Shown here piece by piece: positions 2,306-58,847 of a DNA stretch of 64,000 nt (positions within the stretch are counted from its first letter, which is position 1; each line of letters begins with the position of its first letter). The stretch lies in NCBI GenBank assembly GCA_003514005.1, contig DOSJ01000019.1, forward strand, positions 22,868 to 86,867, given 5' to 3'. The notes under the pieces were generated by a model. That model made no database searches and was not told the origin of the DNA. It worked only from the letters and a program-made list of their open reading frames with translations. The position numbers and the translations under genes were made by a program. The DNA is from Candidatus Falkowbacteria bacterium (GTDB lineage Bacteria > Patescibacteriota > Patescibacteriia > Patescibacteriales > UBA12075).

Positions 2306-5068
2306 TCAATATTTTCCATATATATCATAACAATCCCTATTAATTCTATCTACAGACCAACAAGTCCCACGCGCATAACAATTCCAATGTTCAGGATGTT
2401 TGCTTATGTTTGTTTTTCTTTGAATACAAACATATTCATCATTATTTGGCCACAGATTATATGTATAGTATGTTTTACAATTAGCCGTATCTTTGTCCCA
2501 ATAAAATGACTCTGGACAAGTGCAATCTCCACAATATGTTTTTACTCCACATATTTGATGATAATCACAGACATAACCAAGTGAAGCACAGGTATCAGGA
2601 CAAAATACTACACAATTTCCATTCTTGCAAACATTTCCACCTGTGCAAGGTGTATTTTCCGCTTTATTCGTATGACTTACAATTCCGCTCGCGCAAGTAT
2701 CAATCGTGCACTCATTGCCATCATCCGCGCTTAATGTACCGGCAACTCCGATTTGAGTGCCGACACAGCTGCCAGTTTGAGTAAATGTATCACCAACACA
2801 AACCGTATTTGCCAACGGACTCCAGGTGTTTCCACTGCAACATTCAATGGTGCCACCACAACCATCATTATACGAAGATTTTATTTCAGTTACGGAAAAA
2901 TTCGCACAAGTAGCTGGCACACAGCAAGCAGCGCTTTGCGTATTCGCCCCTTGGCAAGTTTTACCACCACAGACAGGGGCGGAACAAGTTCGCGTTTGTG
3001 TGGTAAAACCATTACCATAGGTGCCGCTGTTCAGTTTGCAAACTCCGTCTACCCAGGCTGACCAAACACCATCAGTCGGATTACAACAAGCATTATTGTC
3101 ATACTGACAATTATCTTTTGTACAGGCAAGCGTACCAAATTTAAATCCAAATTTCTGACATGTTTGTTCGTTCAGCTTGGTACCATCGCATTCTTCACTT
3201 TGTCCATTACCATTCGGTTTCTGAATAATGCCATCACCGCAAAATGTATTTTTACAATTATCATAGCAGGTGTCATTGTTTTTTCCATTCTTACCGTCAT
3301 CACATTCTTCCTGTGGTGCTTCTTTGTTTTTGTTTCCGCAATACCCACCATTATATATACAGCTAGCGTCACAACCATACTGCTTATTAATATTCGAATC
3401 AATCGCATTGTTTGCGATATTGTCAATTGTATCACAGCTCTCAAAGCCATCATCCTTCGGCCCGCCTTTCTTTTCGGTATTGGGTTTTTGGGTTTTACCG
3501 TCACCGCAGTAGTTACTTACGGTTAGACCGTATTTAACATGTTCACTAGTCGCGTTATCCGCAGATACAGCGGTTAATTCAATATTGTATGATCCAGCGG
3601 AATTGATGTCTGGCGTACCATATATTTCTGCTGTTGCTGTTAATCCCGTGCTAATCTGGCGAATGCTCATCCCAGTGGGCAAATTTTTTACGTTAATGAC
3701 TATAACACTATCAAAAAGATGTGTAGCGGTAATTGTGCAGATAGGATAAACACTATTTACTCTGACACTGCGAGTGCAATTTAGAGGCTCGCTTATCTTT
3801 GGTTTTGGTTTGGATACTGTCAGATAAAAATTCTTGCTAGTTCTGCCGCCCCTACCATCATCGATAACGACTGTAAAATCATATTTACCTGGGTCGCCGG
3901 CTTTGGGTGAATAGAGCATCTTTTGTTTGTAAACCGAGGCGGCTTTGAGTATTGGCATATTAATGGCTTCCCAGCCGATCCAGACAGGAGTAACTACAAA
4001 TAGGCTATTCAATGGAAAAAAACTCCAGGTTAGGGAGTCGCCATCGGGATCAATTGCTTCGATATATGCTTTGTATTCGGTTTGAGAATAATTCAATGGA
4101 AAATTGTAGCTGGTAAATTCCGGGGCGCGATTTGGAATTGCTGTGCCGGAACAGCCAACAATATTTACGTATGCTGTTTCCATATTTGCGCACAGGCGGT
4201 ATTTACTGCCATTGGGGCTGGCTGTATACAAAAAAACATTGGCACCGATTGGCAATGTCACAGTTGGCAAAATATCAACACCCGAGGCGGGTGAGGTTAT
4301 GCTGGCAAATTCTTTTTTGTTTTCATCCCAGCAGGTAATCTTATTAAATCGATCATCTTTGCAATCACCAATATTATTTATCGGGTCAACGAACAGATTC
4401 ATTTCCAAGCTTTGCGCAAGCACTTTTTGCCAGCTGGGCCAGACAGATATGGTTATTTGGGGCAGATATGAGCCGGATTTTAGATTGGGATATGTGCCGT
4501 TTACTGTTTTTTGTTCTTCCAGTCTTTGTCTCATATTGGCAATGTCCGAAAGTCTTTTTACATCCCTAACTATCTTGGCTTTGTCGCTGTTGCAGTATTC
4601 CCCGCTTTGGCATTCTGAATCTAGTACACAAACCAACCCAGACACAGAGTCCGGCTTGATACAATTACCCTCTGTATTGATATTGGTATTAAATTTCCAT
4701 TGCTTGATGATACGACCAAAGATATCGATCGTAGCTTGTTCCACTTCTTGATTATATGAAATGATATAGATATTGGTCTGAAGCGTATTGCCGACAATAT
4801 TGGCGGCATTGATATATATTGTGCGTCCATCACGAACGGCTTCATAGCCGTCTACCAAGAGGGCTTGCGGAGAACCAGTGAATTTTTGGAATTTGTACCA
4901 ATCGTTTGGCGAAAAATGTTCCGGGTTTGAGAGAATACGGATGGCAATGGCGTCTTTTGAGAGGGCATGAGTGGGAATTGGGGTGCAAAATATTATTATG
5001 GCATAGCAAAAAAACAATATGAAAAATATTGCTATAAAATTTTTTTGATTATGCAAATTTGCAAGCAT
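2306..5068 (-). CDS. large secreted Cys-rich surface protein (putative adhesin)
   Basis: 920-aa ORF with N-terminal signal/anchor IAIFFILFFCYAIIIFC. Two Ig/cadherin-like (He_PIG-type) segments (AIDPDGDSLTWSF; GTPDINSAGSYNIELTAVSADN). C-terminal third has CGDG..EECDG repeats and a WSAW..TQTRTC..CGGKTC module. Confidence 0.75.
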   Translation of the reverse strand: MLANLHNQKNFIAIFFILFFCYAIIIFCTPIPTHALSKDAIAIRILSNPEHFSPNDWYKFQKFTGSPQALLVDGYEAVRDGRTIYINAANIVGNTLQTNIYIISYNQEVEQATIDIFGRIIKQWKFNTNINTEGNCIKPDSVSGLVCVLDSECQSGEYCNSDKAKIVRDVKRLSDIANMRQRLEEQKTVNGTYPNLKSGSYLPQITISVWPSWQKVLAQSLEMNLFVDPINNIGDCKDDRFNKITCWDENKKEFASITSPASGVDILPTVTLPIGANVFLYTASPNGSKYRLCANMETAYVNIVGCSGTAIPNRAPEFTSYNFPLNYSQTEYKAYIEAIDPDGDSLTWSFFPLNSLFVVTPVWIGWEAINMPILKAASVYKQKMLYSPKAGDPGKYDFTVVIDDGRGGRTSKNFYLTVSKPKPKISEPLNCTRSVRVNSVYPICTITATHLFDSVIVINVKNLPTGMSIRQISTGLTATAEIYGTPDINSAGSYNIELTAVSADNATSEHVKYGLTVSNYCGDGKTQKPNTEKKGGPKDDGFESCDTIDNIANNAIDSNINKQYGCDASCIYNGGYCGNKNKEAPQEECDDGKNGKNNDTCYDNCKNTFCGDGIIQKPNGNGQSEECDGTKLNEQTCQKFGFKFGTLACTKDNCQYDNNACCNPTDGVWSAWVDGVCKLNSGTYGNGFTTQTRTCSAPVCGGKTCQGANTQSAACCVPATCANFSVTEIKSSYNDGCGGTIECCSGNTWSPLANTVCVGDTFTQTGSCVGTQIGVAGTLSADDGNECTIDTCASGIVSHTNKAENTPCTGGNVCKNGNCVVFCPDTCASLGYVCDYHQICGVKTYCGDCTCPESFYWDKDTANCKTYYTYNLWPNNDEYVCIQRKTNISKHPEHWNCYARGTCWSVDRINRDCYDIYGKY

Positions 5069-10618: not shown

Positions 10619-12337
10619 TCACCAACTCCCTCCCCCACCCCCACCAAATCCACCACCCGAGTCACCTCCGCTAAAACCACTTCCGCCAGACGATGCCGTA
10701 GACGCCATAATAGTATTAGTACTAGATTGAAAACCGCCCAAGCTATTTGTAAAAGCCAGCACGGAAAAATTTCCCATATTCGCATCGCTATACCAAGATG
10801 GATTTGTCTGATAAATATTTTCAAATTGCTTTGCCCAGGCCGCTTCAACACCCAATACCATCGCAAAAGGCAATAATTTTTCAAAAATTTGCGGATTTTT
10901 TTCTGGGGCATTGTGAAAATTAATTCTGTCCTTTTCCGCAATATTCAAATACGTTTTTAAGCCAAGGATATGCTCGCGCGCCAACACGCCTTTCTCTGAT
11001 TTTTTCGGCATAAAATTACCAAAAATCATAATAAGTAATCCTGATAACGCGAAACTAACATAACCGATTATTCCAAAAAATTGTCCAAATAAAAATCCCA
11101 AAAACACAATTACTATGCCAAATACAAAATATTTTATCCGGACAGAATTCGGATTGGAAAGAAAATAACCTTTTTCAACAACCGATTGATATACCTTTTT
11201 TGTTATTAATTGCAAATCTTTAAAAAACTTATTTTTTAAATCCGACAACTTGATTTTGTTGTCATTGCCAAATAAAGCCTGAACTAAAGTTTTTTGATAT
11301 TCGTTTAAACCGGCGCTTTCATTTTTCAATTTTGTTAATTCATAATCATCGGATTGTAAAATATTTTTTTCTTGGATTTTCTCAATTTTCAAATAACCGC
11401 GTACAGCCAAATTTATAATCTCGGCCGAAATATCTTTCTGCTGTGCCTTTTCGTCGACAATCGTTCCGATCTCGGCCGGACTTAAATTATCCGGCGCGTC
11501 GAATTGAGCGACAATAGTCCCTCGACCTTTTGGATCACGTCCATTTTTTTTCCATGAAATAAATAAAAAATAAAACACAAAAAACGGCAATAAAATAATA
11601 TAGTTATCTTTGGCAATCTCAAAAAACGTTTTGAATACTGATGGTTTTTTTACGACCCCTTTCGGCAGTCCGATAACAACGGTAACGCCCTCATGCGCGC
11701 GCAAACTGTCATCGGTAAATACCAGCTTGTCAACCATGTTTTCCGCGCTAAAATTCAAACGGCTGGAAACGCATTCTGCCGTACTGCCGGATACTCCAGT
11801 GTAGCAGATAGAGCGCAAAGATTCTTTGTTGACGCTTTCAGGCAAGGTTACCGTTGTCTTTGATCGGCTGATCGGCGTGATCCAGTTGTTGCCGGTCGCG
11901 TTCCAATAAAGCTCGTCATAATCGGCAAAATAATTGATAGCCCGTTCCACTTTATAGTGCAGTACGTATCGCATCGCTCCGGTAACAAAAACATCAGCAT
12001 CGCCAATCTTGAGACGCTTGTCATTGCCTTTGCTTTCAATCTTAAACTCAACCGCTTTTCCCTCGCCGTCTGTAACGGAAAAATCCGAATAGCGCAGTTT
12101 AAAATTCCCGCCATTATTTTTGTACTTGTACGGCAAATCGCGAAAGATGCCGTGCTTCTGTTCCGTACCAAAATCATAGGCAATGCTTTCGTCAACTTCA
12201 ATCGATGCGTCTTTGTTGATTTTGATATCTACTGTAAAATCATTAATCTGCTCCTCGGCAAATGCCGGCGATGCAAAAAATAAACAAGCTGATATTAATA
12301 GGCAAACTTGAATAAATATTTTTTTTATTTTTGACAT
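10619..12337 (-). CDS. DUF2207-type membrane protein
   Basis: 572 aa. Signal peptide, extracytoplasmic N-domain (KHGIFRDLP), TM helices and a Gly-rich tail SGGSGFSGGDSGGGFGGGGGGSW typical of DUF2207. Confidence 0.8.
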   Translation of the reverse strand: MSKIKKIFIQVCLLISACLFFASPAFAEEQINDFTVDIKINKDASIEVDESIAYDFGTEQKHGIFRDLPYKYKNNGGNFKLRYSDFSVTDGEGKAVEFKIESKGNDKRLKIGDADVFVTGAMRYVLHYKVERAINYFADYDELYWNATGNNWITPISRSKTTVTLPESVNKESLRSICYTGVSGSTAECVSSRLNFSAENMVDKLVFTDDSLRAHEGVTVVIGLPKGVVKKPSVFKTFFEIAKDNYIILLPFFVFYFLFISWKKNGRDPKGRGTIVAQFDAPDNLSPAEIGTIVDEKAQQKDISAEIINLAVRGYLKIEKIQEKNILQSDDYELTKLKNESAGLNEYQKTLVQALFGNDNKIKLSDLKNKFFKDLQLITKKVYQSVVEKGYFLSNPNSVRIKYFVFGIVIVFLGFLFGQFFGIIGYVSFALSGLLIMIFGNFMPKKSEKGVLAREHILGLKTYLNIAEKDRINFHNAPEKNPQIFEKLLPFAMVLGVEAAWAKQFENIYQTNPSWYSDANMGNFSVLAFTNSLGGFQSSTNTIMASTASSGGSGFSGGDSGGGFGGGGGGSW

Positions 12338-12380: not shown

Positions 12381-12520
12381 TTGTCATTCCCGCGTAGGCG
12401 GGAATCTTGGTGTCAAAATAACAAAATATTTCTACTATAAAGTTTGTTATAAAAACACCTTTTTAAATTTCTTGTTTGTTTATTCTATTACCGAGATTCC
12501 CGCTTTCGCGGGAATGACAA
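12381..12520. mobile_element. MITE-like element, GTCATTCCCGCG hairpin-end family (copy A)
   Basis: Ends ttgtcattcccgcgtaggcgggaatc (12381-12406) and gattcccgctttcgcgggaatgacaa (12495-12520) are inverted. Each end is itself an 8-bp hairpin. Interior is homologous to copy B at 30779-30913. Confidence 0.7.
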
Positions 12521-12527
12521 AAGACAC

Positions 12528-12668
12528 TCAATTCTTATCCTTAATAATTTTTTGTAGCCTCTTCACCCCCGCCCCGCTCACCTTCATCTTTAACTTCTTT
12601 TTCTTAATTCTTTTTTCCACTTTTTTAATAATCCGATCTTCTTCATTGTCCAAATTTTGTTTATTCAT
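12528..12668 (-). CDS. candidate 46-aa Lys-rich small protein
   Basis: ATG 12668 to TGA 12530-12528: MNKQNLDNEEDRIIKKVEKRIKKKKLKMKVSGAGVKRLQKIIKDKN. Sits behind a good promoter; below the track size cut-off; no homology recognised. Confidence 0.3.
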   Translation of the reverse strand: MNKQNLDNEEDRIIKKVEKRIKKKKLKMKVSGAGVKRLQKIIKDKN

Positions 12669-12725: not shown

Positions 12726-13405
12726 TGAACAATCCCTTAAAACCCTGGTATAAAAAATGGTGGGGCGTATTGGCATTATTAGCGCTTTTGTTTTTTATAA
12801 GCATATTTTTTGCTTTTGTTTTTTTGGTTATCAATTCCCGTGATACTGCGCCTAGCTCTGGCATCAATCCTTTGTTAACGCAAAAAGTTCCGGCGCTGGC
12901 GATCGGTACGGAAAAAAACTATTGGCTCGGAAGCGCAAATCCAAAAATTACGATTGTCGAGTTTGGCGATTTTGCCTGTTCCTACTGTCAAAAATCGTTT
13001 TCCAAAATCCGAGAAATCAGCCAATTATACAAAAACGATATCAAATACATTTACCGCGACTATCCTGTCGTATCCGATTATTCCGCCAAGCTGGCCTTGG
13101 CCGCGCGCTGTGCCGGCGAACAAGGACTTTTTTGGATAATGCATGACAAGTTGTACATCAACCAAGGCATTAGTACGGATCAAGAAATATTAAATCATTT
13201 CAAACAAACCGGAGGCAATGAAGCAAAATTTTCCACCTGTTACGACGCAAACAAATATCTTCCCGAAATCGAAAAAGACTTGAGCGACGGACAATCTCTT
13301 AACATCACCGGCACGCCGACGTGGTTTGTGAATGGACAGAGGCTCGAGGGAGATGTGCCGTATGAGTATTTTATTAACCTAATTTCTAACATATTAGGTA
13401 CTTAG
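12725..13405 (+). CDS. DsbA/thioredoxin-fold thiol:disulfide oxidoreductase, membrane-anchored
   Basis: 226 aa with an N-terminal TM helix. CxxC active site in FGDFACSYCQ and a DsbA-like C-terminal part (ITGTPTWFVNG). Confidence 0.75.
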   Translation: MNNPLKPWYKKWWGVLALLALLFFISIFFAFVFLVINSRDTAPSSGINPLLTQKVPALAIGTEKNYWLGSANPKITIVEFGDFACSYCQKSFSKIREISQLYKNDIKYIYRDYPVVSDYSAKLALAARCAGEQGLFWIMHDKLYINQGISTDQEILNHFKQTGGNEAKFSTCYDANKYLPEIEKDLSDGQSLNITGTPTWFVNGQRLEGDVPYEYFINLISNILGT

Positions 13406-13488
13406 GTGCTTGGGTACTTAGGGGTTTGGTTTATTACAATTTTACCTCAACCCTAAGCACCCAAGCACCTAAGTACCTAAGTACCTAA
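13394..13488. repeat. intergenic hairpin, CCTAAGTA word family
   Basis: ttaggtacttaggtgcttgggtacttagggg vs ccctaagcacccaagcacctaagtacctaa: about 30 bp with 1 mismatch. Left arm contains the dsbA-like stop; right arm ends 4 nt before the porG ATG. Confidence 0.75.
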
Positions 13489-13491
13489 CAA

Positions 13492-14034
13492 ATGAAACAA
13501 ATTCGCATACACGGCCGCGGCGGCCAAGGCGTAGTTACGGCAGCGGAACTTATCGCCATCGCCGCATTTAACAACAACAAAGAAGCGCAGGCCTTTCCGT
13601 CTTTTGGCGTAGAGCGCACTGGCGCACCGATCGAGGCATTCGCGCGCATTGACGACAAACCGATTCGTACGCGCGAGCATGTATACCATCCGGATATTTT
13701 GATTGTCCAAGACGCTTCAGTCATGGCCGCTGTTGATGTTGCCAAGGGCTGTGATGAAAAAACAATCGTAATCATCAACACTTCCCTTTCCAAAGACGCG
13801 ATTAAGCTTAATTTACCAAAAGAAAATATTTTCCCGATCGATGCCACAAAAATTGCTTTGGAAATTCTTGGCAAAAATATCGTCAACACAATTATCCTCG
13901 GCGCCGTCGCCAAATCGACTAACCTTTTTACAATGGACGCTGTCAAAAAAGCCATCAAACAAAAGTTTGGCGGCAAGAGCCAGGAGTTGGTTGATAAGAA
14001 TATTAAGGCGGTGGAGCTGGCCTATAACATGTAA
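13492..14034 (+). CDS. porG: 2-oxoacid (pyruvate):ferredoxin oxidoreductase gamma subunit
   Basis: 180 aa. The N-terminus IRIHGRGGQGVVTAAELIA is typical of POR/VOR gamma subunits. Confidence 0.85.
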   Translation: MKQIRIHGRGGQGVVTAAELIAIAAFNNNKEAQAFPSFGVERTGAPIEAFARIDDKPIRTREHVYHPDILIVQDASVMAAVDVAKGCDEKTIVIINTSLSKDAIKLNLPKENIFPIDATKIALEILGKNIVNTIILGAVAKSTNLFTMDAVKKAIKQKFGGKSQELVDKNIKAVELAYNM

Positions 14035-14144: not shown

Positions 14145-14402
14145 ATGAACATAACCGCAAACCCCCAATCAACCCCAATCAACAAAACCGGCGGCTGGCG
14201 CACATACATCCCGGCAACCGACTATAACAAATGCATCGGCTGTGGCCGTTGTGCCAAAGTCTGCCCGGAAAACGCGATCAAAATGGTCGCAAAAAACGGT
14301 AAACAAATTCCGATTACAAATTTTGATTTCTGCAAAGGCTGCGGTCTGTGCGCGCTGGAGTGTCCGGTGAAGGCGATTGAGATGAAGCTTGATGTGAAAT
14401 AA
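14145..14402 (+). CDS. porD: 2-oxoacid:ferredoxin oxidoreductase delta subunit (2x[4Fe-4S] ferredoxin)
   Basis: 85 aa with two CxxCxxCxxxCP clusters (CIGCGRCAKVCP, CKGCGLCALECP). Confidence 0.85.
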   Translation: MNITANPQSTPINKTGGWRTYIPATDYNKCIGCGRCAKVCPENAIKMVAKNGKQIPITNFDFCKGCGLCALECPVKAIEMKLDVK

Positions 14403-14408
14403 AGCTGT

Positions 14409-14902
14409 CTTTTTTGTCATCTCGACCGAGCGAAGCGAGCGGAGAGATCTATAATACATCAATAAAGCACGCGCAATGTTCAATAAAAAAAGTTATAATT
14501 TCTATATTTACATTTTAAGCAATTACGACCGCAACTGTCTATACGTTGGATTTTGCAACGATATCGCCAGAAGAATTATCGAACACACACATAGCTTCGG
14601 ATGCGAATACTCAAAAAAGTACAAAACCTTTGATTTATTATATTATGAACATTATCAATATGTTAACGAAGCAATAGCCAGAGAGAAACAAATCAAAAGA
14701 TGGGGAAGAGATAAAAAAATAGCTTTAATAAAAACTAAAAATCCGGAATTAAAAAAATTAACCAAAAATTATTCAATGATTTTAGACTTTCTGAAAAAGA
14801 TATCTCTGAAATAGCTGATATTTTAAAAGAAAAATATTCAGCTAGGGATTAAAGTATTACAGATCTCTCCACTCGCTTCGCTCGGTCGAGATGACAAAAA
14901 AG
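14409..14902. mobile_element. GIY-YIG ORF bracketed by 42-bp terminal inverted repeats (element E)
   Basis: cttttttgtcatctcgaccgagcgaagcgagcggagagatct (14409-14450) matches the reverse complement of 14861-14902 at 41/42 positions. Inserted between porD and porA. Confidence 0.7.
14476..14814 (+). CDS. GIY-YIG nuclease family protein (small stand-alone URI/COG2827 type)
   Basis: 112 aa with NFYIYIL..LYVGFCNDIARRIIEH..YYE...AIAREKQIKRW.RDKK. About 45 percent identical by eye to ORF 16292-16594. Confidence 0.85.
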   Translation: MFNKKSYNFYIYILSNYDRNCLYVGFCNDIARRIIEHTHSFGCEYSKKYKTFDLLYYEHYQYVNEAIAREKQIKRWGRDKKIALIKTKNPELKKLTKNYSMILDFLKKISLK

Positions 14903-14950
14903 AGAAATAATTATTTTAAAATAATCATAATTCAATAAACAACAAATAAC

Positions 14951-16168
14951 ATGTCAACTAATAAATCTAATAGACAAATACTCGAGGGCTCACAGGCCAT
15001 CGCCCAACTAATCAATAACATCAAACCCGGCGTCGTATCCGCTTATCCAATCACTCCACAAACACATATCGTCGAAAACTTGGCAAAGTTCAAAGCCGAT
15101 GGCAAGGCGAAGTATGAATACGTCCGCGCCGAAAGCGAATTTGCTGCCGCTTCGATTGTTCTGGGTGCAAGCGCTACCGGTCTGCGTGTTTATACGGCCA
15201 CAAGCTCGCAAGGACTTTTGCTTATGAACGAAGTGGTATACAACATTGCCGGTATGCGTTTGCCTGTCGTTATGACAGTCGCAAACCGTGGCGTATCTGC
15301 GCCGATTACTATTTGGAACGACCACCAAGACGCTATGTCTGTTCGCGATGCCGGCTGGATTATGCTATTTGCCGAGAATCATCAGGAAGCGATTGAGCAA
15401 CATCTCTTAGCATACAAGATTGCGGAAAAGAAAAAAATTCCGGTCATGGTCAATATCGATGGTTTTGTTCTTACTCATACTTACGAAGGCGTGGAAGTGC
15501 CTTCATCAACAGAAATAAAAAAATTCTTACCTGACTATAAACCAAAAGCCGGTGAATATCTTGACACAGCACACCCCCGAACCTTTGGCGCCTTTGCCGC
15601 TCCGGCGCACTATATGGAGATTCGTCATGAGTTGCACGAGGACTTGCGCAATTGTCAATCGGAAATTTTGGAAGAATATGAAAGCTTAAAAAAACTGGTT
15701 CCAAACGCCATCAAACAAACGGAAAAAAACGCGCAGATAAATAATGGCTTGGTTGAATATTATGGACCAAAAAATCCCAAAATTGTTCTGGTCGCAATGG
15801 GTTCGCTAATCGGCACCATCAAAGACGCAGTTGACAAGCTCAATATCAAAAGCCATGTCAAACACTATGTCTCCCCCACCTCTGTCGGTGTTTTGAAAAT
15901 AAAAACCTTCCGTCCCTTCCCGGATAAAGCGATTGTAGATATTTTAAAAAACGCCAAATACTGCGCCGTTATCGAAAAGGCTGTTTCCCTTGGCGCTACC
16001 GACGGTCCTTTGGCTATAGATATTAAATCAGCCGCAAAAAACAGCATCAAAACCAAAATCCAAAGCTACGTTGTTGGCCTAGGTGGACGCGATATCACGC
16101 AGGACAGAATCGCAAGGATCGTTGTCGATGTGCAAAAAAAGGATGATCGGATGAAGTTTGTGGGATAA
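14951..16168 (+). CDS. porA: 2-oxoacid:ferredoxin oxidoreductase alpha subunit
   Basis: 405 aa. ILEGSQAIAQ..SAYPITPQT..ESEFAA..GA..TATSSQGLLLM is typical of POR alpha. Confidence 0.85.
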   Translation: MSTNKSNRQILEGSQAIAQLINNIKPGVVSAYPITPQTHIVENLAKFKADGKAKYEYVRAESEFAAASIVLGASATGLRVYTATSSQGLLLMNEVVYNIAGMRLPVVMTVANRGVSAPITIWNDHQDAMSVRDAGWIMLFAENHQEAIEQHLLAYKIAEKKKIPVMVNIDGFVLTHTYEGVEVPSSTEIKKFLPDYKPKAGEYLDTAHPRTFGAFAAPAHYMEIRHELHEDLRNCQSEILEEYESLKKLVPNAIKQTEKNAQINNGLVEYYGPKNPKIVLVAMGSLIGTIKDAVDKLNIKSHVKHYVSPTSVGVLKIKTFRPFPDKAIVDILKNAKYCAVIEKAVSLGATDGPLAIDIKSAAKNSIKTKIQSYVVGLGGRDITQDRIARIVVDVQKKDDRMKFVG

Positions 16169-16203
16169 TATACTTTTTACCCCAATGGAAAAAATATTTT
16201 CTT

Positions 16204-16707
16204 TTGTCATTTCGCAGCGAAGCGGAGAAATCCCTTATCCATGAATAATCCTCCTATTAGTTTTTTTAGCAAATACTAAAAAAACCATATTATGGCTACA
16301 AAGAAAGAATATAATTTTTATATCTACATATTGGCAAGCGACACAGGAACGTTATATATCGGTTTTACAAATAATCTTGAAAGACGAATCAAAGAACATA
16401 AAAGTGGAATAATAAAAGGATTCACTCAAAAATATGGTTGCAATAAATTAGTATATTATGAACATTATACTTATGTAAACAATACGCTTGAACGTGAAAA
16501 AGAATTGAAAAAATGGAATAGAAATAAAAAGCAAGATTTAATAAAATCAATGAATCCACACTGGAAAGATATTTCAATCGAATTGTTTACATAATTTTTT
16601 GTCATTCCGTAGCAAGATGAGAAAACCTTTAAACAAGAATTGCGTACAAAATGATCAATTCATTATCAACCGTTAAGGGATCTCTCCGCTTCGCTACGAG
16701 ATGACAA
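16204..16707. mobile_element. GIY-YIG ORF with 34-bp inverted ends plus nested miniature copy (element F)
   Basis: Left end ttgtcatttcgcagcgaagcggagaaatccctta (16204-16237) vs right end 16674-16707: 31/34 as reverse complement. An extra left-end-like copy lies at 16599-16631, just after the ORF stop. Confidence 0.65.
16292..16594 (+). CDS. GIY-YIG nuclease family protein (URI/COG2827 type)
   Basis: 100 aa with NFYIYILAS..GTLYIGFTNNLERRIKEHK..YYE...LEREKELKKWNRNKK..NPHWKD. Confidence 0.85.
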   Translation: MATKKEYNFYIYILASDTGTLYIGFTNNLERRIKEHKSGIIKGFTQKYGCNKLVYYEHYTYVNNTLEREKELKKWNRNKKQDLIKSMNPHWKDISIELFT

Positions 16708-16727
16708 AAACAATTACAGAATAAAAA

Positions 16728-19087: not shown

Positions 19088-19366
19088 ATGATAGTAGGAG
19101 AAATATTATATTCTAATACTTTTTGTAATTGCTACAAAAAAATATCTGTGGAATTGCAAAATATTACGAAAAAAAAAGTAGAAATTTTCAAAACCAACCC
19201 CCTGCATCCTTCACTTCGCCTTCATGAATTACATGGCAAATTGTCTGGCTTATGGTCCATTTCTATAAACACTAATTACAGAATTATTTTTAAAAGAAAA
19301 GAAAATGGTGATATTATTTTTGTAATAATCGGCAAACACGATACCTACAAAAATCTAAATAATTAA
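19088..19366 (+). CDS. RelE/YafQ-family mRNA interferase toxin
   Basis: 92 aa with NPLHPSLRLHELHGKLSGLWSISINTNYRIIF....GDIIFVIIGKHD, typical of RelE/YafQ toxins. Confidence 0.7.
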   Translation: MIVGEILYSNTFCNCYKKISVELQNITKKKVEIFKTNPLHPSLRLHELHGKLSGLWSISINTNYRIIFKRKENGDIIFVIIGKHDTYKNLNN

Positions 19367-19368
19367 AA

Positions 19369-19399
19369 CCTGGATTCCCGCCTCCGCGGGAATGACAAG
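19369..19399. repeat. solo hairpin end of the GTCATTCC MITE family
   Basis: cctggattcccgcctccgcgggaatgacaag closely matches the right end of copy D (37638-37667). No partner end nearby. Confidence 0.6.
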
Positions 19400-19403
19400 A
19401 TGA

Positions 19404-19622
19404 ATGATTTATTTTACAAAATACTCCGAACAAAAATTTGAAATCCTGAACAAGTACCAGGTGTTTTTTCGTAAGGAAGAGATTTGTGACGCGGTTTTAA
19501 ATCCGGACAAAATTTCAAAAAAAGGGAAATATTTGTCAGCGCGGAAAGACGGGATTAAGGTTGTTTATGATAAGAAGGCGGGTGTTATTCGCGTTATTAC
19601 TTTTTATCCAATTAAAATATAA
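19404..19622 (+). CDS. small DUF4258-like protein (putative toxin)
   Basis: 72 aa. Resembles the DUF4258 pattern (..NPDKISKKGKYLSARK...KVVYDKKAGVIRVITFYP) and is followed by a DUF2283-like ORF. Weak assignment. Confidence 0.4.
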   Translation: MIYFTKYSEQKFEILNKYQVFFRKEEICDAVLNPDKISKKGKYLSARKDGIKVVYDKKAGVIRVITFYPIKI

Positions 19623-20050: not shown

Positions 20051-20995
20051 ATGCCAATAACCACAGAACAAAAAACAATCACAAAACCAAAACCCACCCC
20101 CTCCCTCTTCGCCGCCGGCCACCGGGGTTGTGCGGGATGCGGACAGATGCTGGCCGCGCGCACTGTTATCAATGCGCTAGGGACCAATACGATTATTGCG
20201 AACGCGACCGGGTGTTTGGAAGTTACCACCACGCCTTATCCGGAAAGCGCATGGGGTGTGCCGTGGATACATTCACTTTTTGAAAATCCGGCCGCGGTTG
20301 CGTCTGGAATATTGGCGGGACTTAAACAAAAAGGCAAGGACAAAAAAGTAAAAATCCTTGTACAGGGCGGCGACGGCGGTACTTTTGATATCGGTTTTGG
20401 GCTGATCAGCGGTATGTGGGAACGAGGCGAAAATATTCTTTATGTTTGCTACGACAATGAAGCCTACTCCAATACCGGCATGCAGGCATCAGGCGCAACA
20501 CCTTGGGCATCCAATACCACGACCACCCCGGCCGGAAGCGGAACAACGATAGACGCAATCGGCTCGCATCAAAGCAAAAAAGACATGATCGCGATCGCTT
20601 TGGCGCACGGTGTCAAATACGTCGCACAATGTACAACCGGCTACCTGGAAGACATCGAGGCCAAAGTAAAAAAAGCGGCAACAATCGAAGGTCCGTCATA
20701 TATCCAGATCCTTGCTCCCTGCATACCCGGCTGGCACATAAAACCGGACCAGGCCATGAGCCTAAGCCGTCTTGCCACCCAAACCGGCCTTTATCCCCTT
20801 TTGGAATATACTGACGGAGCGTTAACCAAAGTTATGCCGGTCCCAGCTAATACGCCGCGCGTCGAAGAATATCTAAAACCGCAAGGACGCTTTTCTCATC
20901 TATTCAAAGGCGACCACGGCAAAGAATTGATCGCGCAAGTACAGGCTTTGGCGGATGGGAATATTTTGAAGTATGGATTGAAAAAAGTGACTTAA
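20051..20995 (+). CDS. porB: 2-oxoacid:ferredoxin oxidoreductase beta subunit (TPP-binding)
   Basis: 314 aa with GHRGCAGCG, GGDGGTFDIGF and YVCYDNEAYSNTG, typical of POR beta. Confidence 0.85.
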   Translation: MPITTEQKTITKPKPTPSLFAAGHRGCAGCGQMLAARTVINALGTNTIIANATGCLEVTTTPYPESAWGVPWIHSLFENPAAVASGILAGLKQKGKDKKVKILVQGGDGGTFDIGFGLISGMWERGENILYVCYDNEAYSNTGMQASGATPWASNTTTTPAGSGTTIDAIGSHQSKKDMIAIALAHGVKYVAQCTTGYLEDIEAKVKKAATIEGPSYIQILAPCIPGWHIKPDQAMSLSRLATQTGLYPLLEYTDGALTKVMPVPANTPRVEEYLKPQGRFSHLFKGDHGKELIAQVQALADGNILKYGLKKVT

Positions 20996-21042
20996 GTTAA
21001 TTAGTAATTAGTTAATTAGGGAATAAAAAATAATCCTCTTTT

Positions 21043-21153
21043 TTGTCATCTCGCAGCGAAGCGGAGAGATCCCTTAACGATTAATTATATATAGATTATT
21101 TTATTTTTTGAACCATGTTTAAGAGATTCCTCCGCTTCGCTACGGAATGACAA
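21043..21153. mobile_element. ORF-less miniature of the GIY-YIG-element ends (element G)
   Basis: ttgtcatctcgcagcgaagcggagagatccctta (21043-21076) and taagagattcctccgcttcgctacggaatgacaa (21120-21153) are inverted (about 28/34), separated by 43 nt. Confidence 0.65.
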
Positions 21154-21170
21154 AAAAAGTGAAATAACAA

Positions 21171-25245: not shown

Positions 25246-25256
25246 ATATTTTATTA

Positions 25257-25329
25257 AATTCTAATTTCTAATTTCTAAAGCCTAAATTTATGATTAAATT
25301 TAGAAATTAGAAATTAGAAATTAGAAATT
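25257..25329. repeat. rpoB-rpoC intergenic hairpin, TTAGAAA word family
   Basis: aattctaatttctaatttctaaagcctaaattt vs aaatttagaaattagaaattagaaattagaaat. The right arm is 4 units of a 7-nt period. Confidence 0.8.
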
Positions 25330-25346
25330 TTATTTAATTTTATTTA

Positions 25347-29342: not shown

Positions 29343-30737
29343 TCACCTTTTTAGCTCATTCAAAAGCCCTCTCACCACCGCCCGATCATCCCAAGGAATT
29401 TTCTCGCCGTTTGCGATACAAATCGCTTGTTCACTACCCTTGCCGGTAATAAGTACAATGTCATTTTCAGTCGCCAATTCCAGCGCCTTTTTAATCGCTT
29501 CGCGTCTGTCCAAAATCTTGAATAAATTTTCGCCGATTTTCTTTCCGGCATGTTCCGCGCCCAAAGCGACTTGATCGATTATTATCTCTGGGTCATCATC
29601 ATAAGGGTCTTCATTGGCAACTATTACATAGTCAGCATTCATTCCAGCTAGCTTGCCCAAAACAGGCCGGCGCGCGACATCGCGTCCGCCGCCGGTCGAA
29701 CCAAGGACATGGATTATTTTTCCATGAGGAATATACTTTAGCGCGCCATATAATTTTTCTACGGCATTCGGTTCAAAGGCATAATCGACAATCACGGCAA
29801 ATGGCTGGCCTTCCTCGATTTTTTCCAACCGGCCGTCAATCCCCTTTATTTTTTCCAAACCGCTTTTGATTATGGTCATATCCAAACCGATTGCCTGCCC
29901 GACGCTAACGGCATTCATGGCATTAACCGCGTTAAACTCTCCGAGCAATCCAAGATTGATAACAGCCCCGTCTACCACAAAGCTGGTACCCTTACCGCTT
30001 GCTTTTATATCGCCAAATATAATTTTTTTCAAATTCTTTATTGCCAACTGTAAATCATTATTTTTCGTATAGGCAATCTTTTTTACAGCGCTAAAGCCCA
30101 AAAAATACTCTGCCTGCTCATCATCGCCGTTCGCGATAATTACTTTTTCGATTTGTTGTAGCTCAATCTTTCTAATGCCGGATTCGGATTTTATAATCCG
30201 CCCGCTGTCATCCATTCGTTTGATTTTACAATTTTTTAGATGCGCGAACAATCTGCCCTTTGCTTCTTTATATTTTTCAAAACTGCCGTGCGAATCAATA
30301 TGCTCCGGATACAACCCGGTAAAAACCAAAATATCAAAATTAATAAAGCGATGACGATATTGCACTATCCCCTCGGACGTTGTTTCAATAACGGTATAAC
30401 GACAGCCGTTTTTCACCATATGCCGGAGCATCTTCTGCGTAAAAAAACGGCCGACCATTGTCATCTTTTTATCATTCAACCATTCTTTCTTGCCATCATT
30501 AAAAGCCGCGGTCGAAGTAAACCCGGTCTTAAGTCCCGCCTCTTCCAACATTTTTGCAATCAAATATACGCTCGTTGTTTTGCCAGTCGTTCCAGTCACG
30601 CCGATAACGATTATATCTTCGCTCGGATGCCGATACACAAAAGCCGAAAACCAGCTCATAAAGAAATGGTATGGAGGTTGGAGCGTTTTAAAAAGTTTTT
30701 TTGGGATTAGTTTTTTTATTTTGAAAATTATACTCAT
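29343..30737 (-). CDS. murE: Mur ligase, MurE-like (UDP-MurNAc-L-Ala-D-Glu:diamino-acid ligase)
   Basis: GVTGTTGKTT P-loop, VDYAFEPNA and GSTGGGRDVARRP...ADYVIVANEDP resemble MurE. ATG 30737 preferred, because the track start 30785 is the CAT of a MITE end. Confidence 0.7.
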   Translation of the reverse strand: MSIIFKIKKLIPKKLFKTLQPPYHFFMSWFSAFVYRHPSEDIIVIGVTGTTGKTTSVYLIAKMLEEAGLKTGFTSTAAFNDGKKEWLNDKKMTMVGRFFTQKMLRHMVKNGCRYTVIETTSEGIVQYRHRFINFDILVFTGLYPEHIDSHGSFEKYKEAKGRLFAHLKNCKIKRMDDSGRIIKSESGIRKIELQQIEKVIIANGDDEQAEYFLGFSAVKKIAYTKNNDLQLAIKNLKKIIFGDIKASGKGTSFVVDGAVINLGLLGEFNAVNAMNAVSVGQAIGLDMTIIKSGLEKIKGIDGRLEKIEEGQPFAVIVDYAFEPNAVEKLYGALKYIPHGKIIHVLGSTGGGRDVARRPVLGKLAGMNADYVIVANEDPYDDDPEIIIDQVALGAEHAGKKIGENLFKILDRREAIKKALELATENDIVLITGKGSEQAICIANGEKIPWDDRAVVRGLLNELKR

Positions 30738-30778
30738 AATTAAATTACAAATTTGAAATTTAAAAAGTATTTTTAACT

Positions 30779-30913
30779 TTGTCATTCCCGCGAAGGCGGG
30801 AATCTTGGTTAAAAAATAACAATATATTTTTCCGTTATGTAGTTTTAAAACATTTTATATTAATCTTATTTATCTATTTTAGCACCGAGATTCCCGCCTT
30901 CGCGGGAATGACA
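30779..30913. mobile_element. MITE-like element, GTCATTCCCGCG hairpin-end family (copy B)
   Basis: ttgtcattcccgcgaaggcgggaatc (30779-30804) and gattcccgccttcgcgggaatgaca (30889-30913). Interior aligns with copy A. Confidence 0.7.
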
Positions 30914-32013: not shown

Positions 32014-32413
32014 TATATTGGGTAAGAGCGTATCTTGCCAGTGGTGATGCATTATAACCGTCAAACCGGAATTCTGCTTAGCCAACGCCTGTGCAGATTC
32101 CAAAAAGGAGAAACGCCTATGTTTGCACTAACCATTAATTGTACGGGGATGTTCGCTTGCTGAATTATTGACGTAACCAAAAAAAACGCGAACGCAAAAA
32201 GTTAACCGCTTATATTAAAAGGAGACATCGCCTATGTATACGTCAAAAGATAACACCATGTAATGCAGAGGGCTTAGGCACAGGAAAGCCGCTTACACGC
32301 GAATGTCTTTCGCCTAAAGACGCTTTATTCGCGTGTAAGCGCAACCCCACTTTGTTCTTTTTCAAAAAAGTTTTCAAGTATCAACTGGTATTCAAACACC
32401 AGTTTTTATTTTA
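32014..32413 (+). ncRNA. candidate ~400-nt orphan RNA with two SD-led micro-ORFs
   Basis: Bounded by the promoter above and terminator 32383-32413. Micro-ORFs at 32119-32163 (MFALTINCTGMFAC) and 32234-32263 (MYTSKDNTM), each behind AAAAGGAGA-N7-ATG. Hairpin of 15+6 bp at 32290-32341. Visibly more GC-rich than other spacers. Confidence 0.4.
32383..32413 (+). terminator. rho-independent terminator (plus strand)
   Basis: Stem aactggt / accagtt with an 8-nt loop, followed by tttttatttta. The minus-strand reading has no U-run. Confidence 0.7.
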
Positions 32414-32463
32414 TTCTTAATTCTAACTTCTTACTTCTTCCTTCTAACTTCTAACTTCTCACT

Positions 32464-33048
32464 TCATCTCCCAATCAACCGCAACGCCGCTCGAATTCTC
32501 TCACCCGAACCCTTAATACTCGGATCAACCTGCCGCAAAACATCACGCGCTTCAAACATGGAATAACCCAGGGCCATCAAAGCGTCAATCTCTTCCCCCG
32601 AAGTAATCATCCCTTTACCATCTGTCGCTTGCAGTACGCCATGTGAAATATGCGCAATCTTGTCACGCAAATCTAAAACCACACGCTCGGCAGTCTTCTT
32701 ACCGATCCCTGAAACTTTTATCAAAAGCGAAGAATCACCACGCGATATCGAATCCTTGATATCATCGACACTCGCGATGCCAATAACAGCAAGCGCCGAT
32801 TTCGGCCCAATACCGCTAATCGTCAAAAGTAATTCAAACATCTCTAATTGTTCTAATGATTTAAAACCGTACAGGGTGTGGGCATCCTCACGAATATGCT
32901 GATGAATATACAGCTCTATTTCCTGTCCGATTTCAAGGTCAACAAAAATAGTTTCACTGACAAAAACCAGGTAACCAATGTCACGCACGTTCAAAATAAT
33001 ATAATTCTTTTGTTTGTTTTGAATTTTTCCTCGTAAATACGCTATCAT
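32464..33048 (-). CDS. ruvA: Holliday junction DNA helicase subunit RuvA
   Basis: 194 aa with MIAYLRGK.., HhH motifs (ISGIGPKSALAV, VSGIGKKTAERV) and a C-terminal domain III. Confidence 0.9.
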   Translation of the reverse strand: MIAYLRGKIQNKQKNYIILNVRDIGYLVFVSETIFVDLEIGQEIELYIHQHIREDAHTLYGFKSLEQLEMFELLLTISGIGPKSALAVIGIASVDDIKDSISRGDSSLLIKVSGIGKKTAERVVLDLRDKIAHISHGVLQATDGKGMITSGEEIDALMALGYSMFEARDVLRQVDPSIKGSGERIRAALRLIGR

Positions 33049-33122: not shown

Positions 33123-34399
33123 TTTCTTCTTATCACACTAAACTCCACCACCATCTCATCCAACTCCAACCACACCAAAGCCCCCTGCCCACCATGCGCC
33201 TCTGCAATTTCCGCCCCGGTTTTAGCGTCCCAAAGCCTTTCCACCTTCAGCTTAATTATATCATACTTCGGCTTCACAATCTCAATCTCATCGCCAACTC
33301 TAATTGAATTATGAACTTTAATTAAAACCTTCTCACTTCTTGCTTTGAACTTCTTACTTCTAACTTCTAACTTCTTACTTACCACAACTCCGCAAAACTC
33401 CCACTCACTTTTCTCATGCGAATTATCCAAATTCTGATCCGCCTTATCTCCCAACAAAAACCCGGTCGTATAACCACGATGCACAAGTTTTGTTTCCAGC
33501 TCTTTTTGTAAATATTCCATTTCAACGATCTGATTTTTTTTATTTTTAATACCAAGCAATTCTATCGCCCGTGAATAAATACCCGCAACTACCGCCTGAT
33601 AATAAACGCTCTTTGCTCGTCCCTCGATCTTAAAACTTGAAATCCCAGCTTCTTGAAGTTCCTTTAAATATTTCACCAAACACAAATCCTTCGAATTCAA
33701 AATATACGACCCATGTTCTTCTTCAACAATTTCAAACTCATCACCTTTCTCATTTCTTACTTCTAACTTCTCACTTCTCACATCCCCCTTCCATCTACAA
33801 GGCTGCACGCAATCCCCCAAATTCGCGCTCCTATCCGCATAATATTTTGACAAAAAACAACGCCCTGAATAAGCCATGCACATCGCGCCATGCACGAAAT
33901 ATTCTAATTCCAAATCAGGACATTTTTTATGAATCATTTTGATTTCCGGCAAAGTCGTTTCACGACCCAGAATAATTCTTTTCACTCCTTGCGCTTGCCA
34001 AAATTTTGCCGCCTGCCAATTTGTGCAATTAGCCTGCGTGGAAAGATGAATTTCAACTTCTGGCCAAATTTCTTTTACAATCTCAATCACGCCAGGGTCA
34101 GAAATAATCAAAGCATCGACTTTTATTTTTTTTAATTTTTTAATATATACTGGCAATTTTTCCAAATGTCGATTATGCGCAAAAATATTTACGGTGATAT
34201 AAATCTTCTTACCGATTTTATGGCAATATTCAGTAGCCTCCTTAATTTTCTCCAAATCAAAATCATTAATCCTCACCCGTAAAGAAAAATCCGGAATCCC
34301 GGCATAAACCGCATCCGCCCCAAAAACAAGAGCCGTCTTCATCTTCTCCATATTCCCAGCCGGAGCAAGCAATTCAATTTTACTAAATTTTTTATCCAT
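33107..34399 (-). CDS. peptidase U32 family protein
   Basis: 430 aa with ELLAPAGN, YFVHGAMCMAYSGRCFLS, CVQPCRW and FKIEGR, typical of U32. Confidence 0.85.
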   Translation of the reverse strand: MDKKFSKIELLAPAGNMEKMKTALVFGADAVYAGIPDFSLRVRINDFDLEKIKEATEYCHKIGKKIYITVNIFAHNRHLEKLPVYIKKLKKIKVDALIISDPGVIEIVKEIWPEVEIHLSTQANCTNWQAAKFWQAQGVKRIILGRETTLPEIKMIHKKCPDLELEYFVHGAMCMAYSGRCFLSKYYADRSANLGDCVQPCRWKGDVRSEKLEVRNEKGDEFEIVEEEHGSYILNSKDLCLVKYLKELQEAGISSFKIEGRAKSVYYQAVVAGIYSRAIELLGIKNKKNQIVEMEYLQKELETKLVHRGYTTGFLLGDKADQNLDNSHEKSEWEFCGVVVSKKLEVRSKKFKARSEKVLIKVHNSIRVGDEIEIVKPKYDIIKLKVERLWDAKTGAEIAEAHGGQGALVWLELDEMVVEFSVIRRKISKL

Positions 34400-37513: not shown

Positions 37514-37667
37514 TTGTCATTCCTGACACACAATAGCCCCGCAGGGAAATAAATATTAAATGATCAGGAATCCAGGGGAAATAAATTTGAATATTTTTAA
37601 ACGTCAGAATGTTTAATAACGCATACGCCATTTTCACCTGGATTCCTGCCTTCGCAGGAATGACAAA
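37514..37667. mobile_element. MITE-like element, GTCATTCC family (copy D, left end disrupted)
   Basis: ttgtcattcctga...tcaggaatccagg on the left vs cctggattcctgccttcgcaggaatgacaa on the right (37638-37667). Confidence 0.55.
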
Positions 37668-39603: not shown

Positions 39604-39612
39604 AGATTTTTT

Positions 39613-39696
39613 AATTTCTAAATTATAATTTCTAATGTCTAAAGATTTATTAAATATGCAAAAATTTAGACATTAGAAATTAATAATTTAGAAATT
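39613..39696. repeat. hairpin, TTAGAAA word family
   Basis: aatttctaaattataatttctaatgtctaaa vs tttagacattagaaattaataatttagaaatt. Lies between htpX and the tRNA. Confidence 0.8.
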
Positions 39697-39708
39697 CATA
39701 AAAAACTG

Positions 39709-39780
39709 TGCTCTCGATAGGAATCGAACCTATATTACAAGTTCCGGAAACTTGCGTTCTATCCATTGAACTACGAAAGC
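39709..39780 (-). tRNA. tRNA-Arg (anticodon CCG)
   Basis: Hand-folded cloverleaf: GCTTTCG/CGAGAGC acceptor, GTTC/GAAC D-stem, CAAGT-TTCCGGA-ACTTG anticodon arm, ATAGG-TTCGATT-CCTAT T-arm, discriminator A. CCA is not encoded. Confidence 0.9.
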
Positions 39781-39785
39781 TAAAA

Positions 39786-39853
39786 AATTTCTAAGTTCTA
39801 ATTCCTAATTTCTAATCTTTTATTTAGAAATTATAATTTAGGACTTAGAAATT
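39786..39853. repeat. hairpin, TTAGAAA word family
   Basis: aatttctaagttctaattcctaatttctaa vs ttagaaattataatttaggacttagaaatt. Confidence 0.8.
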
Positions 39854-39940
39854 TATATTAATATAATATCTTATTTTAAATAAAAAAACAATAAAAAAAC
39901 ACCCATCTTTTAAAGACGGGCATTTTAAATATATTCGTAA

Positions 39941-41787: not shown

Positions 41788-41950
41788 GGCCGAAAATAAA
41801 TAATTGATTTTTATTAAATTACTGCTTGAAGCGGATCATATTACCTACTCGAATGTTTATGTATGAATCTAACTAATATCCAATTCTCTACTTCTGCGCT
41901 TTTGCTGAGCTGAGCTTAATTTAATAAAAATCAATTATTTATTTTCGGCC
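41788..41950. mobile_element. 163-bp element with perfect 34-bp terminal inverted repeats (copy 1)
   Basis: ggccgaaaataaataattgatttttattaaatta (41788-41821) is the exact reverse complement of 41917-41950. A second copy lies at 55027-55190 in the same orientation. Confidence 0.75.
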
Positions 41951-42086
41951 GATACGAATCTATAATTTTCCACAAAATAAGTTAATTAACCAAATTTTTA
42001 AACAAAAAAAACACGCGATTGCGTTTCTTGATTATATCTTAATCCTTTAAAATAATTTTGTAAAGTCCGATTTTCAAACCAACACA

Positions 42087-46581: not shown

Positions 46582-46592
46582 ATACAAATTTT

Positions 46593-46673
46593 AATTTCTA
46601 ATTTCTAAATTATAATTTCTAATAAATATAATTAAAAAATAATTTAGAAATTAGTAATTATAATTTAGAAATT
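46593..46673. repeat. hairpin in 5-prime leader of the ABC operon, TTAGAAA word family
   Basis: aatttctaatttctaaattataatttctaa vs ttagaaattagtaattataatttagaaatt. Lies between candidate promoter 46687-46714 and the ATG. Confidence 0.8.
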
Positions 46674-46686
46674 ATTAATTAATAAA

Positions 46687-46714
46687 ATTATAGTAAATTC
46701 TCCACATCTGACAA
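46687..46714 (-). promoter_or_regulatory. candidate sigma70 promoter of the ABC operon
   Basis: On the minus strand: TTGTCA (46714-46709), 16 nt, TATAAT (46692-46687). Confidence 0.5.
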
Positions 46715-55026: not shown

Positions 55027-55190
55027 GGCAGAAAATAAATAATTGATTTTTGTTAAATTACCAGCTTGAAGCGGATCATATTACCTACTCGAATGTTTAT
55101 GTGTGTATCTAACTATTATTTAACTCGCAACTTCTGCGCTTTTGCTGAGCTGAGCTTAATTTAATAAAAATCAATTATTTATTTTCGGCC
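55027..55190. mobile_element. 163-bp TIR element (copy 2)
   Basis: The right 70 nt are identical to copy 1. The left TIR differs at 2 positions (ggcAgaaa.., ..ttttGtt..). Confidence 0.75.
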
Positions 55191-55238
55191 GATACGGCCT
55201 TGAAATACCCACAAAAGGATGTTAAAGATCCATTTTTC

Positions 55239-58844: not shown

Positions 58845-58847
58845 AAT

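Follow-up and report, generated by a model that had tools for sequence, protein, structure and literature searches.

Small non-coding repeats with an Ssn-type recognition hairpin in an uncultivated low-GC bacterium

What kind of element is the short repeat at positions 12381–12520, which ends in inverted hairpins, and does it belong to a system that is already known? The window, here the whole stretch of 64,000 nucleotides that was analysed, corresponds to positions 22943–86942 of contig LBUC01000003.1 (assembly GCA_000992375.1), whose numbering was used for the gene scans. The original prediction had described a hairpin-ended family of four loci, two full copies, a loop-expanded variant and a solo end, and had labelled it a MITE family. 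These loci were recovered with the end sequence GTCATTCCCGCGAAGGCGGGAATC, which at up to three mismatches has six matches in the window, compared with 0 in 100 shuffles; a pattern of the form ATTCC-N10-GGAAT recovers the identical six sites (0.14 expected). These six ends share GTCATTCC[C/T]GCG-N4-CGC[G/A]GGAATC, and the seventh end is the enlarged-loop left end of the copy at 37514. Pattern, repeat and alignment evidence agree that the family is multi-copy and non-coding, with inverted hairpin ends, as had been claimed: the full units are 133–154 nt long and have terminal inverted repeats of ~47 nt, and the hairpin copies are all intergenic, beside gene starts.

Two of the full copies in the window are canonical doublets, listed without a strand. 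The doublet at 12381–12520 has ends at 12383–12406 (+) and 12495–12518 (−) enclosing an 88-nt AT-rich interior, and is located 44 nt upstream of a DUF2207 gene (10619–12337, minus strand). The doublet at 30779–30913, with ends at 30781–30804 (+) and 30889–30912 (−), is located 42 nt upstream of the annotated start of a Mur ligase gene (30737). The third full copy, at 37514–37667 (likewise without a strand), is loop-expanded and lies 5′ of a HisKA sensor kinase gene, so that the gene annotation agrees with the predicted 5′ contexts (DUF2207, murE-like and sensor kinase). Its right end is at 37641–37664 (−) and its left end, at 37516–37572, reads GTCATTCCTGA-[37 nt]-TCAGGAATC, with the same 8-bp stem as elsewhere and a loop of 37 nt, 33 above normal; the predicted expansion of the left loop is therefore present, although its size had been overstated at about 40 nt. 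The solo right end predicted at 19369–19399 was found as a hairpin at 19373–19396 (−), in the 37-nt spacer between a RelE-like gene (19088–19366), which stops 3 nt before that predicted interval, and a small ORF (19404–19622); it has no partner end. Further copies exist, as anticipated: two full copies are found on the contig just beyond the window, a canonical one at positions 4585–4716 of locus L204 (approximately 67752–67883 in window numbering) and a loop-expanded sister of the 37514 copy at 3633–3779 of the same locus (approximately 68689–68835). The total is five full copies and one solo end in ~82 kb of contig, composed of the window and 10 kb on each side.

As single-stranded DNA, a single end folds into an 8-bp stem with a 4-nt loop (−8.9 kcal/mol, z = −3.8), matching the 8-bp hairpins originally described, and is set in oriented, non-palindromic flanks, with a pyrimidine and GTC 5′ of the stem and a C 3′ of the stem in every copy. 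Whole units also fold back on themselves (−35.1 kcal/mol, z = −9.8 for 12381; −38.1 kcal/mol, z = −11.3 for 30779). They are nearly symmetric, occur in both orientations relative to genes and have symmetric flanks of the form C-T(n)-GTCAT ... ATGAC-A(n)-G. In the canonical subfamily (12381, 30779 and the L204 copy at 4585) pairwise identity is 79–81%, and the interiors of 12381 and 30779, which had been called alignable, are 81% identical in the same orientation. The loop-expanded subfamily consists of the 37514 copy and its sister at L204 3633–3779. Because the expanded form is present in two copies, at 76% identity, it must have been propagated and is no one-off lesion. A T-A stem pair is found in both ends of the 37514 copy, as opposed to C-G in the other copies, the loop-expanded sister included. 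These four coordinated bases, a single case, argue for selection on pairing and for the two ends having been kept alike.

The ends closely resemble a hairpin that has already been described. The window end TGTCATTCCCGCGAAGGCGGGAATCTTG is identical at 26 of 28 bases (two differ) to CGTCATTCCCGCGMAVGCGGGAATCYRG, the consensus of the ‘Neisseria transformation sequence’, NTS, which contains the older dRS3 repeat, ATTCCC-N8-GGGAAT (PMC11893778). The published degenerate SRM pattern, HGTCWYN(0-2)YYVSBRHN(0-5)WNVSBRGN(0-2)RNCYNB (PMC11893778), fits four of the six ends, compared with 0.06 expected from 100 first-order Markov random sequences; traced by hand, the 19373 end fails by a loop base and the 37641 end by the T-A stem pair. 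On sequence grounds, the four loci are thus confirmed as small non-coding repeats with the published Ssn recognition hairpin (NTS/SRM, formerly dRS3). As a 2025 paper already reports the hairpin, the enzyme and their association across genomes (Chenal et al., PMC11893778), the core finding is a rediscovery, and the window represents a new host for a known system, not a new kind of element.

SsnA, the enzyme of this system, is a 94-aa single-domain GIY-YIG protein that binds the NTS solely as single-stranded DNA and on one strand only, and does not bind the RNA form (PMC11893778). Binding needs the C just 3′ of the palindrome and cutting needs three bases 5′ of it; the cut site is a few nucleotides upstream of the motif, in N. 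meningitidis 3 nt 5′ of the 28-nt motif, and altered or extended loops are tolerated (PMC11893778), in agreement with the propagation of a loop-expanded subfamily here. Binding and strand-specific cleavage of single-stranded DNA have been demonstrated for the Neisseria and Wolbachia enzymes only. The role demonstrated in Neisseria is modulation of natural transformation, not transposition: in N. meningitidis, transforming DNA of the form NTS-gene-NTS is integrated less when SsnA and NTS are present (PMC11893778). The arrangement NTS-ssnA-NTS resembles an insertion sequence according to its authors, who did not demonstrate mobility (PMC11893778). An association with GIY-YIG genes across genomes, expected from the original prediction, is already in print: 71% of ssnA homologue regions have at least one SRM and 42% have SRMs on both sides, and ssnA is present in 81% of genomes with more than 200 SRMs (PMC11893778).

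Two Ssn-like genes are located 2–4 kb from the 12381 copy, in elements with variant ends. The element at 14408–14903 (+), between porD and porA, has hairpin-like inverted ends (GTCATCTCGACCGAGCGAAGCGAGCGGAGAGATC; 56 nt, 93% complementary) and encodes a 112-aa Ssn-like GIY-YIG protein (gene 14476–14814), whereas the element at 16195–16716 (+), downstream of porA, has inverted ends of the GTCATTTCGCAGCGAAGCGGAGAAATC type and encodes a 100-aa Ssn-like GIY-YIG protein (gene 16292–16594). PF01541 is the sole domain above the Pfam cut-off in the 14476–14814 protein (E = 4.7e-14); in the 16292–16594 protein (PF01541, E = 2.3e-17) T5orf172 also passes, over the same residues (24.2 bits, cut-off 20). 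An NTS-flanked 94-aa protein from locus L040, which agrees with SsnA in length and in catalytic positions (Y6, Y17 and E64), served as a proxy for SsnA in homology comparison, and is 46% identical to the 16292–16594 protein (E = 3e-26) and 34% identical to the 14476–14814 protein (E = 4e-20). Among PDB sequences the 16292–16594 protein matches UPF0213 only, far more weakly (1zg2, 3e-9; 1ywl, 3e-6), and NCBIfam holds no specific family for the GIY-YIG proteins of the window.

The inverted ends around these resident genes, 55–56 nt long and 80–93% complementary, share GTCAT...GCGAAGC...ATC with the NTS. They fold weakly (−5.6 and −3.2 kcal/mol), no better than shuffles, and do not match the published SRM pattern. 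A gene-less derivative of the 16195 type, at 21039–21158 (no strand assigned) in the porB–rpoC spacer, has a left end with 87% complementarity, across 63 nt, to the 16195 element's right end, and a right end (GTCATTCCGTAGCGAAGCGGAGGAATC) that is transitional to the NTS type. All 22 ends that were aligned have GTCAT, most retain the central GCGAAG and nearly all stems are closed by ATC, which bears out the claim that the hairpin ends are shared with the GIY-YIG elements. Given the shared GTCAT, GCGAAGC and ATC and the intermediate end of the 21039 unit, the proposal of one superfamily of ends holds; in other genomes, moreover, the identical hairpin adjoins Ssn-like GIY-YIG genes. No GIY-YIG gene flanked by the exact ATTCCCGCG-type hairpin is present in the 82 kb of contig.

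The likeness to the published NTS/SRM–Ssn system (PMC11893778) thus extends from the motif (26/28), the 8-bp stem, the GTC and C flanks and the intergenic position to the small single-domain GIY-YIG genes between inverted copies and the tolerance of loop changes. It differs in the host, here an uncultivated bacterium of low GC that its gene content and accession series probably place in the candidate phyla radiation (the main text of PMC11893778 mentions neither Patescibacteria nor candidate phyla nor Parcubacteria), in the restriction of the canonical hairpin to gene-less doublets in the 82 kb read, and in the two resident ssn-like genes with divergent, weakly folding ends that the published pattern misses. 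Nor are doublets treated there as units or labelled MITE- or REPIN-like (PMC11893778). What the window adds is a near-unchanged Neisseria-type hairpin in a low-GC uncultivated bacterium, and REPIN-like doublets in at least two propagating subfamilies beside Ssn-like genes with divergent ends. A related architecture is that of the NIMEs (dRS3-RS-dRS3), in which 20-bp ATTCCC-N8-GGGAAT repeats surround a lower-GC spacer of 50–150 bp; isolated dRS3-RS-dRS3 units have been described in Neisseria, and NIME arrays are said to “seem to be specific to Neisseria” (PMC1797815). The 12381 and 30779 copies have this unit architecture, whereas the 37514 copy, with ATTCCT...AGGAAT, falls outside the strict dRS3 definition, and the units here are isolated and form no arrays.

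The hairpin is widespread. A scan with GTCATTCCCGC-N4-GCGGGAATC matched at least 120 genome loci and at least 120 viral contigs; the genome matches listed represent more than 20 phylum-level groups by record title, five candidate-phyla-radiation lineages included, so that the suggestion of similar hairpins in unrelated bacteria proved correct. Positions left free in the scan are nevertheless conserved among 179 copies in the 120 genome loci listed (loop G-M-A-R, a pyrimidine before GTCAT, CAG after ATC), and the hairpin is nearly constant across phyla. When whole copies were compared with ~200 other loci by blastn, only the ends (27–31 nt) were shared, the interiors being lineage-specific. Among the matches listed, adjacent hairpins form 29 outward pairs as against six inward and six in the same orientation, and doublets measure 66–137 nt. 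In the viral set listed, doublets of ~102 nt predominate; some IMG/VR viral contigs (L224 89–1186; L215, L217, L227 and L277) carry arrays of up to 13 hairpins, and in several a hairpin lies no more than a few dozen bases from a contig end, which is what prophage integration at the motif would produce. Two records have unusual assignments: a 3.8-kb contig assigned to Nanoarchaeota has the hairpin at L088 1511–1582, and a contig assigned to Klebsiella pneumoniae has it at L005 4525–4661. Each may be either misbinned or genuine, in which case it would extend the range so far reported.

A profile built from the two GIY-YIG proteins of the window was run on the 120 genome and 120 viral loci listed, and detected an Ssn-like ORF in two of the former and three of the latter, each directly adjoined by the hairpin (5/5). 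The hairpin is found on both sides of the gene at L040 6117–6466 (350 nt), L095 4363–4881 and L308 7786–8164, and on one side in L209 and L248. Such hairpin-gene-hairpin units are compact and are found in viral contigs, and the genes between identical hairpins in other loci are always GIY-YIG genes among the matches listed.

Relatives were sought in metagenomes with PorA, which yielded 80 related loci; the porD–porA spacer was compared across 72. In the closest syntenic relative, L122 (81% PorA identity, identical gene order), all five inserts are absent: the 12381 copy (copy 1), both GIY-YIG elements, the solo end and the 21039 unit. Its porD–porA junction is empty, without the 14408 element, the 16195 element is absent, and hairpin and unit are missing from the syntenic spacer of the 19373 solo end and from the porB–rpoC spacer, respectively; its intergenic DNA is too diverged to be aligned for exact empty sites. 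The porD–porA spacer is at most 40 nt long in 43 of the 72 relatives, and in seven other loci the junction holds GTCAT-hairpin doublets of differing subfamilies. One of these junctions, in L161, contains a 67-nt NTS-type doublet, and L196, with flanks 86–89% identical to those of L161, is empty at the insert site, reading stop-1 nt-start. The L161 insertion includes 33 + 9 additional AT-rich nucleotides beyond the inverted repeat, which leave its boundaries undefined. In L142, a 72-nt doublet adjoins a small conserved ORF that copy 1 also adjoins. This pattern of presence and absence among relatives fits repeated gain. Units appear to come and go at fixed intergenic junctions, which bears on the question of NTS-ssn-NTS mobility (PMC11893778) and provides useful, if indirect, evidence for it.

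The pyruvate:ferredoxin oxidoreductase genes of the window (14145–16168 and 20051–20995) are themselves interrupted, with GIY-YIG elements between porD and porA and after porA, and with porB 4 kb further on, past two pilin-like genes and toxin-antitoxin-like ORFs; L122 keeps the gene order of the por region without the GIY-YIG elements. In L137 (9538–9974), L127, L138, L139, L141 and L144 the porD–porA junction holds an insert of 420–480 nt. That of L137 contains no GIY-YIG gene and encodes what appears by eye to be a four-helix-bundle protein (23S rRNA intervening-sequence-like), with heptamer repeats flanking the insert. This junction seems to accept small inserts in general.

The explanation that we consider probable is that the loci are gene-less inverted doublets of the Ssn recognition hairpin, composed of hairpin, AT-rich spacer and inverted hairpin. 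When the DNA is single-stranded, as in the lagging-strand template or in incoming transforming or conjugative DNA, each end would extrude its 8-bp hairpin. A cognate Ssn would bind the hairpin together with the C just 3′ and, requiring the GTC just 5′ of the hairpin, would nick that strand a few nucleotides further 5′. With the ends in inverted orientation, each strand would be nicked at its outer 5′ unit boundary, and a cut at the distance used by N. meningitidis SsnA would place the nick at about the terminal C of the flank. The hairpin-ssn-hairpin units would be the presumptive autonomous form, and the gene-less doublets a non-autonomous form, spread or maintained in trans in the way that REPINs relate to RAYT genes. 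In this inferred scheme a host enzyme would cleave these copies, cleavage would be followed by copying to new sites and by integration in some manner, and the units would thereby transpose. A hydrolytic GIY-YIG nuclease is not known to have strand-transfer activity, and a given strand presents just one of its two ends in cleavable orientation, so that the copying step is without known precedent. The ‘peel and paste’ elements of the IS200/IS605 family offer a partial parallel, sharing subterminal single-stranded DNA hairpins, cleavage a short distance away and the lack of target-site duplication. The hairpins of the two IS200/IS605 ends are on the same strand, whereas the ends here are inverted and no covalent tyrosine intermediate is involved.

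The MITE label stands in part. The units are short, non-coding and dispersed in several copies, they have terminal inverted repeats, and they are present or absent at orthologous sites. No direct repeat flanks any copy, however, so that the target-site duplication of a MITE is lacking, and the transposition that the label implies is conjectural. A partner gene with the same ends occurs in L040, L095 and L308, and none is present in the contig read. It is possible, although we hold this broader view only tentatively, that hairpin-ssn-hairpin units and gene-less doublets together constitute a genuine, unrecognised class of prokaryotic transposable element, with a hydrolytic GIY-YIG nuclease, single-stranded DNA hairpin ends and no target-site duplication, a class that would be active in bacteria of the candidate phyla radiation and would move between phyla in part on phages. 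If so, the differing subfamilies at the porD–porA junction, the propagated loop variant and the compensatory stem change would be the first comparative evidence of its mobility.

The repeats could instead be punctuation domesticated by the host, with Ssn cutting of incoming or replicating single-stranded DNA controlling recombination or uptake and the copies multiplying by recombination. The reduced integration of NTS-gene-NTS DNA in N. meningitidis in the presence of SsnA and NTS (PMC11893778) agrees with such a role, as do the intergenic position of the copies beside gene starts and the combination of a hairpin near-constant across phyla with lineage-specific interiors, blastn matches stopping at 27–31 nt. 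The proposal leaves unexplained, however, why differing subfamilies occupy one ancestrally tight operon junction, why a loop-expanded variant is found in two dispersed copies and why compact hairpin-gene-hairpin units occur in viral contigs, and it is regarded as unlikely. It is compatible with the gene-less doublet explanation, and the two do not exclude each other.

An element acting at the RNA level (a small RNA, 5′-UTR structure, terminator or attenuator) is highly improbable. The copies do lie in 5′ regions, and the terminal GGAATGACA provides an outward-facing ATGACA that resembles a −35 box, followed after 17 nt by a −10-like hexamer in the flank, at 12387–12359 (−) and 30785–30757 (−), toward the DUF2207 and Mur ligase genes. 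Promoter-like counts are not above those of shuffles, however, and the near-symmetric unit is oriented both ways with respect to genes. In a terminator scan no copy overlapped a terminator-like site, and the GC stems lack the T-run that follows the stem of an intrinsic terminator. If a copy were transcribed, this would be incidental and would not account for the family, and SsnA does not bind the RNA form of its hairpin (PMC11893778). At gathering thresholds Rfam returned one tRNA only, and hence no family for the repeats. At permissive thresholds it returned FtrB and WsnRNA46 (both below cut-off) and plant microRNA precursors, the last rejected because they reflect the long fold-back only. 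WsnRNA46, from Wolbachia, matches full-length, and the FtrB match is at 12463–12541 (−) of the window. FtrB is the Northern-detected Francisella small RNA B, described as a Francisella-specific trans-acting RNA (RF02748); its match scores 38.2 bits against a cut-off of 66, and nothing is common outside the hairpin. Its consensus contains guCauuCcCGCGuAGGCGgGaauCUC and the published Northern probe is GAGATTCCCGCCTACGCGGGAATGAC, so that this ‘small RNA’ may itself be a transcribed SRM copy.

Least probable of the readings considered is that the repeats are REP/REPIN elements of a Y1/HUH transposase or attachment sites of an IS110/Piv-type recombinase: the gene between identical hairpins elsewhere is always GIY-YIG (among the matches listed), REPs carry a GTAG-type tetranucleotide whereas the conserved 5′ flank here is GTCAT, and Pfam annotation shows no Y1_Tnp, DEDD or other transposase family nearby, with no RAYT, IS110 or other transposase among the genes called at contig positions 13518–95409. 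In favour of this reading, the whole unit folds into one long REPIN-like hairpin, the motif lies no more than a few dozen bases from one end of several viral contigs, and dRS3 is a documented phage integration target (PMC1797815); Neisseria filamentous phage is integrated into dRS3 by an IS110/Piv-type recombinase. The resemblance to REPIN/BIME–RAYT systems is instead one of organisation, with inverted doublets of short palindromes forming one long single-stranded DNA hairpin, and with many gene-less copies for each enzyme gene, which is itself repeat-flanked. The enzymes differ, a GIY-YIG hydrolytic nuclease here as opposed to HUH/Y1.

The repeats also affect annotation. The ORFs that had been called spurious are explained by translation of the hairpin end, in which GTC ATT CCC GCG AAG GCG GGA ATC encodes VIPAKAGI, the +1 frame SFPRRRES and the reverse strand EIPAFAGMT. 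Hairpin ends thus create recurrent spurious peptides (SFPRRRES, VIPAKAGI and IPAFAGMT) and false N-terminal extensions, and one or more of the ‘small RNA’ families in Rfam appear to represent a copy that is transcribed. The longest Mur ligase ORF (29343–30785, minus strand) starts inside the repeat, at the ATG of GGAATGAC, while the deposited start is 30737; the start at 30785 was rejected as spurious, its ATG being borrowed from GGAATGAC.

Other repeats were observed in the window. Tandem repeats of 7–8 nt (TTCTAAC, TTAGAAA, CCTAAGTA and similar) crowd the intergenic regions, often as inverted arrays around a spacer (13388–13494, 25251–25344, 32400–32478, 33316–33394, 39608–39868, 46574–46702 and 58777–58858), and similar tandem arrays flank inserted genes in relatives. 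A repeat of ~170 nt without a GTCAT hairpin occurs at 41788–41956 and 55028–55196; its two copies are 92% identical and have a terminal inverted repeat of ~34 nt (GGCCGAAAATAAATAATTGATTTTTATTAAATTA).
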